The notes under the pieces were generated by a model, which searched no databases, was not told the DNA's origin, and saw only the letters and a program-made list of their open reading frames with translations. DNA of 64,000 nucleotides from Mustelus asterias (lineage: Eukaryota). A program made the translations under genes and the position numbers. This document shows, piece by piece, positions 38,291-39,955 of this stretch (position 1 is the first letter of the stretch; each line of letters begins with the position of its first letter). The stretch is taken from contig NW_027590160.1 in assembly GCF_964213995.1 (NCBI RefSeq), forward strand, positions 310,001-374,000. Reading direction: 5' to 3'.

Positions 38291-39271
38291 TTGCTCAATA
38301 ATTGCCAGTCTCCAGTCGAATGGTTGTTGGTGTGTAACACCAAATGTTCTTTTCTTTCAACAGAGGAGTTAACGAGTAGTGAAAGATTTTTAAAAAGACA
38401 TTGTTGATGCAGGCACCTGTCGCCAGTGGCTCAGCAATGTGCAGTGTAATAGAAGTTGAACTGGCTGACAAATTGTCCCCCCAATGCCTGCTTTGTGAGG
38501 AATTTAAACAAAAGGTCCTTCAACAAATCAATCCTCAACAATGGCAAAGAAGAGCAAGGATCCGCCTAAATTTAAATTCGGTTCGCTGGATTCAGATGCT
38601 CACCATTCGACCAGAGATCCTACAACAGAGCATCCAGCTGCTATTTGCAGCGATGTTGGGTTTGCTGAAGGGCATTTCATTTTAAATTCGCAAAAAGTGG
38701 TAATCTAAACACAGGGAAATTTCAGCAAATTCCACCGCAGTCACATTGCAGATGATGCAGCGAATGACTCTCCTGGCGTCATTGCATCAGCCCCAGAGGA
38801 CAATTGCTCATGAATACACCGCGCTGAAAGGCAGGGAAGCCATAGTGGGCAAGGGGTCCACCTACATGTGGCATTCAGTCACTCACCTGTCCCAATTTAA
38901 TCAAGAAGTCGGAGCGAGAGGCCAGAGTGCGTTACACCTTCGAATCGGCAGCACTCTGATCGAAGACAGGAGACTTTTCTACCACAACGCAGACACACAC
39001 ACACGCGCGCGCACTTACGCACGCACGCACTTGCCGAACTCCAGTCAATTTATTCTTGTACGACACCAACTGCTTCCCTCTTTCAACGGAGGAGTTAAAG
39101 AGTAGCGAAAATATGAAAAGCATTGACGTTGCAGGCATCTGGTGCCAGACGTTCAGCAATGTGCATTGTGATAGTCGTTGAACTGGCTGGTAAATTGCCT
39201 TCTCGATTCGTGCTTTGTAACAAATTTAAACAAAATGCCCTTCAGCATATCAATCATCTGTACTTGCAAAA

Positions 39272-39614
39272 GGCTTCTCGGCCTTTTGGCTAAGATCAAG
39301 TGTAGTATGGATTGGATGCTGCACTTGGTTGAGGTCATTAGGTTACATTGAAGCTTCATATGTTTCATATGAAGCAATTTTTAAAAGCGGTATCTCGGCC
39401 TTTTGGCTCAGATGCAAAAGAGATGAAGTCTTGGAGGAGGAATTGCTTTCCCTCCTCCAATCAGCTTGGCTCATGTAGATCGGGCCCAGGACAGGGTAAA
39501 TGGTCGCTTGCCCTGTCTTGCCAGCCTGGATCGGAAATGTCTCAACTTGTTGAGACTCTGAATTGGACTTGATTTCATTGAATTGGAAAAGTATGTTAAA
39601 AAAATCAAAAAAAA
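39272..39614 (+). mobile_element. U2 snRNA-headed SINE-like retroposon, copy 1
   Basis: 39273-39308 equals U2 nt 4-39 (GCTTCTCGGCCTTTTGGCTAAGATCAAGTGTAGTAT). Non-U2 hairpin-rich body, A-rich tail, 16-bp TSD ATCTGTACTTGCAAAA. Confidence 0.85.
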
Positions 39615-39630
39615 ATCTGTACTTGCAAAA

Positions 39631-39932
39631 GGCTTCTCGGCCCTTTGGCTAAAATCAAGTGTAGTATGGATCGGATGCTGCGCTTGGTCATTAGGTTACA
39701 TTTAAGCTTCATTTGAAGCAATTTTTAAAAGCGGCATATCGGCTTTTTGGCTAAGATGCAAAGGCCTTGGAGGAGGTGAGTCTGCACCTACTCCAATCAG
39801 CTTGGCTCATGTAGGTCAGGCGCAAGACAGGAGTGAAGGCCTTGTCTTGTCAGCTTGGATCGGAAATTTCTCAACTTGTTGAGACCATGAATTGGACTTG
39901 ATTTGATAGAATTGAAAAAGTATTTTTTAACA
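39631..39932 (+). mobile_element. U2 snRNA-headed SINE-like retroposon, copy 2
   Basis: U2 head with 2 mismatches (39632-39667), homologous body, followed by ATCTGCATTTGCAAA (39933-39947). Confidence 0.85.
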
Positions 39933-39955
39933 ATCTGCATTTGCAAATTGAAACA

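Follow-up and report, generated by a model that had tools for sequence, protein, structure and literature searches.

What placed two similar elements in a row at one and the same site behind a tRNA-Gln gene of the shark Mustelus asterias? The preliminary description of this locus had seen two separate insertions and suggested a sequence-specific endonuclease, pointing to Tx1-clade elements such as Dewa. Dewa is a Tx1-clade element of tRNA-array spacers. Our analysis covers a window of 64,000 nucleotides (contig NW_027590160.1, positions 310,001 to 374,000), to which all plain coordinates refer, and follows the elements through the genome.

The locus and its U2-headed elements

Direct reading gives the order target site, copy 1, target site, copy 2, target site, tRNA-Gln, which confirms the layout of three site copies around two insertions described before. 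The left target-site copy (39256..39270, 15 bp) is trailed by two non-target bases (39271-39272). Then come copy 1 (39273..39614), the middle target-site copy (39615..39629), the same two extra bases (39630-39631), copy 2 (39632..39932) and the right target-site copy (39933..39947), all on the plus strand. The tRNA-Gln(TTG) gene (39956..40027, Rfam 67.7 bits) lies on the minus strand, with the target site 9-23 bp behind its 3' end. The left and the middle site are identical and have TAC at site positions 6-8. The right site has CAT there, the two changes already seen in the preliminary description. The repeat around copy 1 had been given as 16 bp; its identity on both sides stands, but the target measures 15 bp, and the longer count arose because the same two non-target bases trail both the left and the middle site. 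The paralogous site at 23838..23852 (plus strand, CAT state) is indeed empty by direct reading. It stands beside a decayed tRNA (23858-23916, 30.2 bits), and the unit that holds it is a paralog of about 80% identity, not a pre-insertion allele.

Decayed, duplicated tRNA units (Gln, Glu, Gly, Leu and Phe calls) and CA repeats occupy 5900-9400, 14200-24200 and 32200-40800 of the window, and within these regions blocks of 1-1.8 kb are repeated at 79-89% identity. Young repeat copies, 95-97% identical, are present at 27300-27952, 47048-48009 and 48667-49615, two of them in inverted arrangement.

Both copies start with nucleotides 4-39 of U2 snRNA (39273..39308 in copy 1, 39632-39667 in copy 2; RF00004, 56.4 and 35.5 bits), a feature absent from the preliminary description. 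In copy 1 this head represents the 5' side of the Keno target. The heads of the five subfamily consensuses equal the genome's own U2. Behind its head, copy 1 contains an inverted arm (39316..39344) with predicted base pairing to the head (39316-39330 to U2 nt 25-39). On the opposite strand this arm resembles the U2 target, and it took insertions in other copies. A second, internal U2-derived piece (U2 nt 7-30) is located at 39393..39417, and the A-rich tail, whose start is approximate, at 39598..39614; the tail of copy 2 is decayed. Fold prediction gives a run of hairpins in copy 1 (z = -6.5; 0 of 100 shuffles were equally stable). Members of the SINEU class have no internal Pol III promoter; a crude motif scan of copy 1 for such elements found three T4+ runs, one B-box-like match and no A-box match.

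The family is a SINE of the SINEU type, the snRNA-headed class of SINEs: the 5' head derives from an snRNA (here U2), and the element is short (301-342 bp, below 500 bp), multicopy and of common structure, with a poly(A) tail and target duplications. In the genome (3.68 Gb) the head-body junction has 1,433 exact matches and the tail at least 4,269; the reversed control gave 0 for both. Copies were sampled as all 74 head-junction matches on contig C1, which represent 68 distinct loci, and further as the 30 best loci for copy 1 and the 30 best for copy 2. The head ends at nt 39 in 108 of 135 cases, the C1 set having been selected by a pattern that fixes this junction, and U2 nt 1 is reached by 20 of 89 C1 copies. 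Target duplications were found at 52 array-leading copies and measure 8-23 bp (median 14) at 50 sites. Of the 114 array-leading copies, 62 were dropped: 55 gave no clear duplication, 6 were preceded by an element tail or an odd match, and in 1 the junction fell within the tail. In one copy (L093, G000:C1:82749881-82750132) the head junction matches three times at a spacing of 117 bp, which reveals an internal tandem triplication between the two U2 pieces of the SINE.

In the available portions of Kojima 2015 (PMC4494074), SINEU is known only from crocodilians, with none found outside them; its mobilisation is ascribed to a Keno-related Tx1 group, its transcription is left open, and tandem SINEU-3 copies sandwiching a duplicated site are read as sequential insertions. 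Measured against these portions (PMC4494074), the shark family resembles SINEU-1, -2 and -3 in its shortness, its U2-derived head, repeated U2 pieces, poly(A) tail and internal T runs, in the little 3' similarity to its partner and in the probable mobilisation by a Keno-related Tx1 element. It differs in its host, a shark instead of a crocodilian, and in its insertion sites, which are found inside U2 genes at the Keno position here and in a Mariner element (Mariner-N4_AMi) there. Unlike in crocodilian SINEU, most copies here are dispersed with a weak consensus and yet stacked. The likeness is one of described structure, and we infer an origin independent of crocodilian SINEU. No report of a U2-headed SINE in sharks was found in the literature searched; Repbase, Dfam and most subscription papers lie outside it, and the family may be catalogued there. 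The accessible parts of PMC5381603, PMC8143547, PMC8010984 and PMC3747384 contain no shark case, and a term search of PMC5499810 found no mention.

Relationship and order of the two copies

BLAST puts the identity of copy 1 and copy 2 at 79.5%, and on aligned columns they differ by 13.8%, in keeping with the many substitutions and indels reported before. In a tree of 138 near-full copies they fall into different clades. The nearest dispersed relatives, own segmental duplicates excluded, are found at 2.5% for copy 1 and at 5.5% for copy 2, and the distances to the respective subfamily consensus are 1.8% and 5.2%. Each copy is therefore closer to dispersed copies than to its neighbour, which excludes a plain local duplication as their origin and agrees with two separate insertions at one site, as originally proposed. 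The preliminary description had named two observations that would speak against this proposal, random flanks of the other copies and a sister relationship of the two. The flanks of other copies do vary, but the two copies are not sisters. Plain local duplication can be rejected unless one body was fully replaced later.

Such a replacement would require a local tandem duplication that included the target site, after which the upstream body was exchanged by gene conversion from another subfamily. This would account for the identity of the left and middle junctions, including the two substitutions and the two extra bases, and recombination does occur in the family, as the single chimeric copy L028 illustrates. 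Yet copy 1 fits another subfamily from end to end and finishes in a long A tail of its own, most stacked pairs are widely diverged (22 of 24 by at least 5.8%), and LINE and SINE are mixed in the stacks. We consider this course of events very improbable. The chimeric copy (G000:C270:90051-90385), which belongs to the 10 loci beside tRNA-Gln, is mostly copy-1-like, with a copy-2-like stretch near its 3' end and the tail of copy 2; it is likely a product of recombination between copies 1 and 2 of a duplicated stack.

The two separate insertions can be placed in order: copy 2 was likely inserted first and copy 1 second, upstream of copy 2. The TAC state occurs in filled loci only (9 of 9 TAC matches), the CAT state in all 11 empty paralogous tRNA-Gln units. 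The left and middle sites share the two substitutions and the two junction bases, all of which are missing from the right site and from the 11 empty paralogs. This fits a duplication, by copy 1, of the left junction of a pre-existing copy 2. In five other stacks (L063, L101, L116, L125 and L228) the upstream duplication, as judged by eye, takes in the initial bases of the element downstream. Seven stacks contain the most diverged subfamily, and in all 7 its copy stands 3'-most, which we count as support for a newer-upstream order. By nearest-neighbour distance the upstream member was the younger one in 16 of 24 pairs, an age polarity short of significance (P=0.15). The spread of the two subfamilies is similar (1.9% for that of copy 1, 2.0% for that of copy 2, in samples biased by the queries), and thus subfamily age alone gives no order of the two copies.

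The probable course is that copy 2 landed at the site first and that the left site copy then acquired the two substitutions. Copy 1 would have entered the same cut just upstream and duplicated the left site together with the junction bases of copy 2. The amplification of the whole unit with the tRNA-array segment to at least 10 places, which in itself is shown, would have come last.

Both copies could also stem from a single event, in which the reverse transcriptase copied two different SINE RNAs in succession and re-primed at the duplicated site. Stacking would then need no sequence specificity, which the target logo indeed lacks, and the absence of a significant age polarity by distance would be expected. 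However, a single event predicts the ancestral sequence in both outer sites, in conflict with the two changes that the left site shares with the middle but not with the right one. In addition, the change shared among the duplicates is greater in copy 2 than in copy 1 (8 vs 2), and upstream duplications elsewhere hold bases of the downstream element. This makes a single event highly improbable. An independent insertion of copy 1 into the two paralog types is not favoured, on the weak evidence of 2 shared rare changes.

The probable partner LINE and SINE copies inside U2 genes

Upstream of one stack we found a LINE with APE endonuclease, reverse transcriptase and zf-RVT domains (PF03372/PF14529, PF00078, PF13966). 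Its best named relatives are shark proteins (75-81%), which by themselves point to a shark host; more distant are amphibian and fish reverse transcriptases (38-45%), one of them Tx1-named. None of the protein relatives of the LINE bore the label Keno. Keno belongs to the Tx1 clade, carries an APE domain and targets U2, according to the available text of PMC4640811. Like Keno as described in the accessible sections of PMC4640811, PMC6136364 and PMC4494074, the partner LINE carries an APE domain and adjoins this U2 sequence with its 3' ends. It differs from Keno in its relaxed specificity, most 3' ends being dispersed. At the Keno position 26 poly(A)-U2 junctions were identified, of which 21 have a LINE tail, 4 a SINE tail and 1 another sequence; the flank at these junctions is the Keno target as quoted in the accessible section of PMC6136364. 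Fifteen of the 21 LINE ends sit in one tandem array of 8,035-bp units. The 5' ends of the LINE join U2 at nt ~33-35. Its 3' ends (596 motif matches in all) are mostly dispersed, with 1 of 30 on C1 at the U2 target. Most LINE-adjacent flags on one ~350-bp stretch, a common repeat inserted in the reference LINE, were disregarded.

The domains of the LINE, its Tx1-type relatives and its presence at the shared U2 site substantiate the link to the Tx1 clade made in the preliminary description. The helper of the SINE is likely a Keno-type Tx1 LINE. Mobilisation by a Tx1-clade LINE is a further feature of the SINEU class, to which the shared U2 site and the shared stacks correspond as correlative evidence. 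Sequence shared by the SINE and the LINE is confined to a short likeness of their tails (20 of 27 bases, E=0.84), which counts against the partnership.

SINE copies, too, occupy the Keno site of U2 genes. One U2 gene (L228), at the margin of the main U2 array, contains a stack of SINE, LINE fragment and SINE with duplications between them, the same layout as at the tRNA-Gln locus; the DNA upstream of it is identical to that of an intact U2 gene at 297 of 300 positions. Several in-U2 copies are 1.3-2.5% from dispersed copies, and in some dispersed copies (L162, L171, L172) the head is preceded by U2 spacer DNA. Transcripts of the family would probably come from source copies inside U2 genes, with the gene supplying the head and the promoter. 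The internal U2 piece varies hardly more than the head, and this weakens the idea that the head is refreshed from a U2 gene. None of the 12 in-U2 copies examined is close to the subfamily of copy 2.

Further arrangements were observed in U2 repeats. Fifteen tandem 8,035-bp units at G000:C24:44.82-44.93 Mb (L204-L218, L220) each combine an intact U2 gene with a near-full-length LINE of Keno type. These LINEs end at the U2 target; in the copy examined ORF2 is broken and the common repeat of ~350 bp has been inserted. A second U2 gene type, ~88-90% identical to that of the main array, is found in 448-bp tandem units at G000:C21:28.05-28.08 Mb (L166-L170, L224-L227), which are heavily invaded by LINE and SINE, partly as inverted blocks. 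Far from the arrays, at G000:C1:80.334 Mb (L091), a fragment of a 448-bp U2 unit has a SINE at the Keno site and LINE tails on both sides, and looks like a transduced array piece. At L219 (G000:C1991) a poly(A) is joined to the U2 target with neither a SINE nor a LINE tail before it, which represents a third kind of passenger.

Stacking, target choice and the tRNA gene

Throughout the family, also inside U2 genes, new copies have entered the cut of an older element on its upstream side. Head-to-tail SINE stacks were found at 12 of 67 C1 loci, and of the first 100 tail matches, 9 lie within 450 bp of another on the same strand, where 0.029 would be expected. The excess of same-cut stacking is thus roughly 300-fold, without a matching sequence consensus. 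A U2-headed element directly follows 5 of the 30 LINE 3' ends on C1. An all-against-all comparison of flanks, which has no null and is uninformative, gave 4 of 62 homologous pairs within 3 bp.

The position of the double insertion could be due to a Dewa-like endonuclease that seeks the spacer just behind tRNA genes. Two insertions do lie 9-23 bp behind the tRNA-Gln gene, and tRNA-Gln adjoins 10 of the 30 top loci. But the flanks of these 10 loci are 94-99% identical, and both paralog types share rare changes in both copies; therefore they are duplicates of one amplified event. Genome-wide, one geometry was covered, the tail followed by an antisense T-loop behind the tRNA 3' end. It gave 21 matches, namely the 10 known loci and 11 others, in which ARAGORN found no tRNA gene; a distance-shifted control gave 13 matches, and the background is at least 4,269 tails. 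In 69 C1 stretches ARAGORN made 2 tRNA-like calls, 300-700 bp from a copy, and the 11 paralogous tRNA-Gln units without an insertion also speak against such targeting. The Dewa-like targeting of tRNA-array spacers put forward in the preliminary description thus did not withstand this analysis: one event among at least 4,269 tails largely refutes tRNA targeting for the geometry tested, and we give it hardly any credence. With Dewa the elements have in common the Tx1 clade and, at the single tRNA-Gln locus, the position in a tRNA spacer; they differ in showing no family-level preference for the tested tRNA geometry. No paper describing Dewa was found in the literature searched. The tRNA gene at this locus is most likely a bystander.

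We think it very probable that two U2-headed SINEs of different subfamilies entered the same cut in succession through the enzymes of a Keno-type Tx1 LINE, with the tRNA gene as a bystander. In L088 and L101 a SINE lies upstream of a LINE fragment without an adjacent U2 head, which counts against this explanation.

The sequence-specific endonuclease originally proposed is partly supported: the fixed position in U2 genes and the sharp hot spots favour it, but the 50 dispersed sites have only a weak A|T-type consensus in common. A target-site logo from collected flanks and a test for enrichment near tRNA genes had been suggested together; the logo yielded this weak consensus, and the enrichment was absent in the geometry tested. 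The sole preference at 117 junctions is T at +1 (67 of 117, P=3.7e-6), and none of the 117 has 7 or more of 10 matches to the U2 target. In U2-likeness the 50 dispersed target sites do not exceed matched background (1,175 of 2,000 resamples as high). Primary sequence therefore does not explain the re-use of sites. At the hot spot L294-L312, one junction of an abundant host repeat holds 17 of 19 insertions within a 30-base window, which points to sharp preferences of the enzyme that escape a small logo; the other two insertions are at a U2-like word ~14 bases upstream of this junction. The bodies of the hot-spot insertions are 0.9-21.7% apart, and their distal flanks are unrelated save one older shared repeat. 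Antisense SINE or LINE insertions near the same position of the U2-like arm of an older SINE were found in three C1 loci (L068, L087, L117). The site at the tRNA-Gln locus, a single post-hoc case to which we give no weight, has a U2-likeness of 12/20 in the TAC state (97 of 23,386 background sites as high) and of 10/20 in the ancestral state.

A site would likely be re-used because the upstream junction keeps an intact, cleavable target, and the older U2 head beside the junction may aid the joining of the new copy's 5' end. In-register 5' junctions were found in 6 of 16 scored stacked pairs, compared with 1.31 by permutation (13 of 20,000); three of the six pairs come from one array, and 12 of 28 pairs were unscored. 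At the tRNA-Gln locus the two 5' junctions are identical and in register by direct reading, outside the scripted score. The in-register pairs are the evidence for homology-assisted joining, but conversion between neighbouring heads could also have caused in-register junctions. A tentative interpretation, which we hold to be possible but doubtful, is that insertion begets insertion: the U2 end of the new cDNA would pair with the older head, and by this the upstream junction would become the preferred target and stacks would grow with the newest member upstream.

What is new here is the analysis of stacking and the negative tRNA test. Such stacks could be mistaken for dimeric subfamilies or for tRNA-targeted elements, and caution is advisable in this respect. 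The copies in U2 genes at the Keno site offer a testable answer to the question of how snRNA-headed SINEs are transcribed, which the available text of Kojima 2015 (PMC4494074) leaves open. Stacking is also relevant to the way in which site-specific retrotransposons of relaxed specificity select and finish their insertions, and the stacks themselves document in which order the subfamilies were active. If insertion does beget insertion, a promoter-less SINE bred in U2 genes would add a homology-assisted homing step to Keno's target-primed reverse transcription, and ordered stacks would form at sites with almost no sequence consensus.
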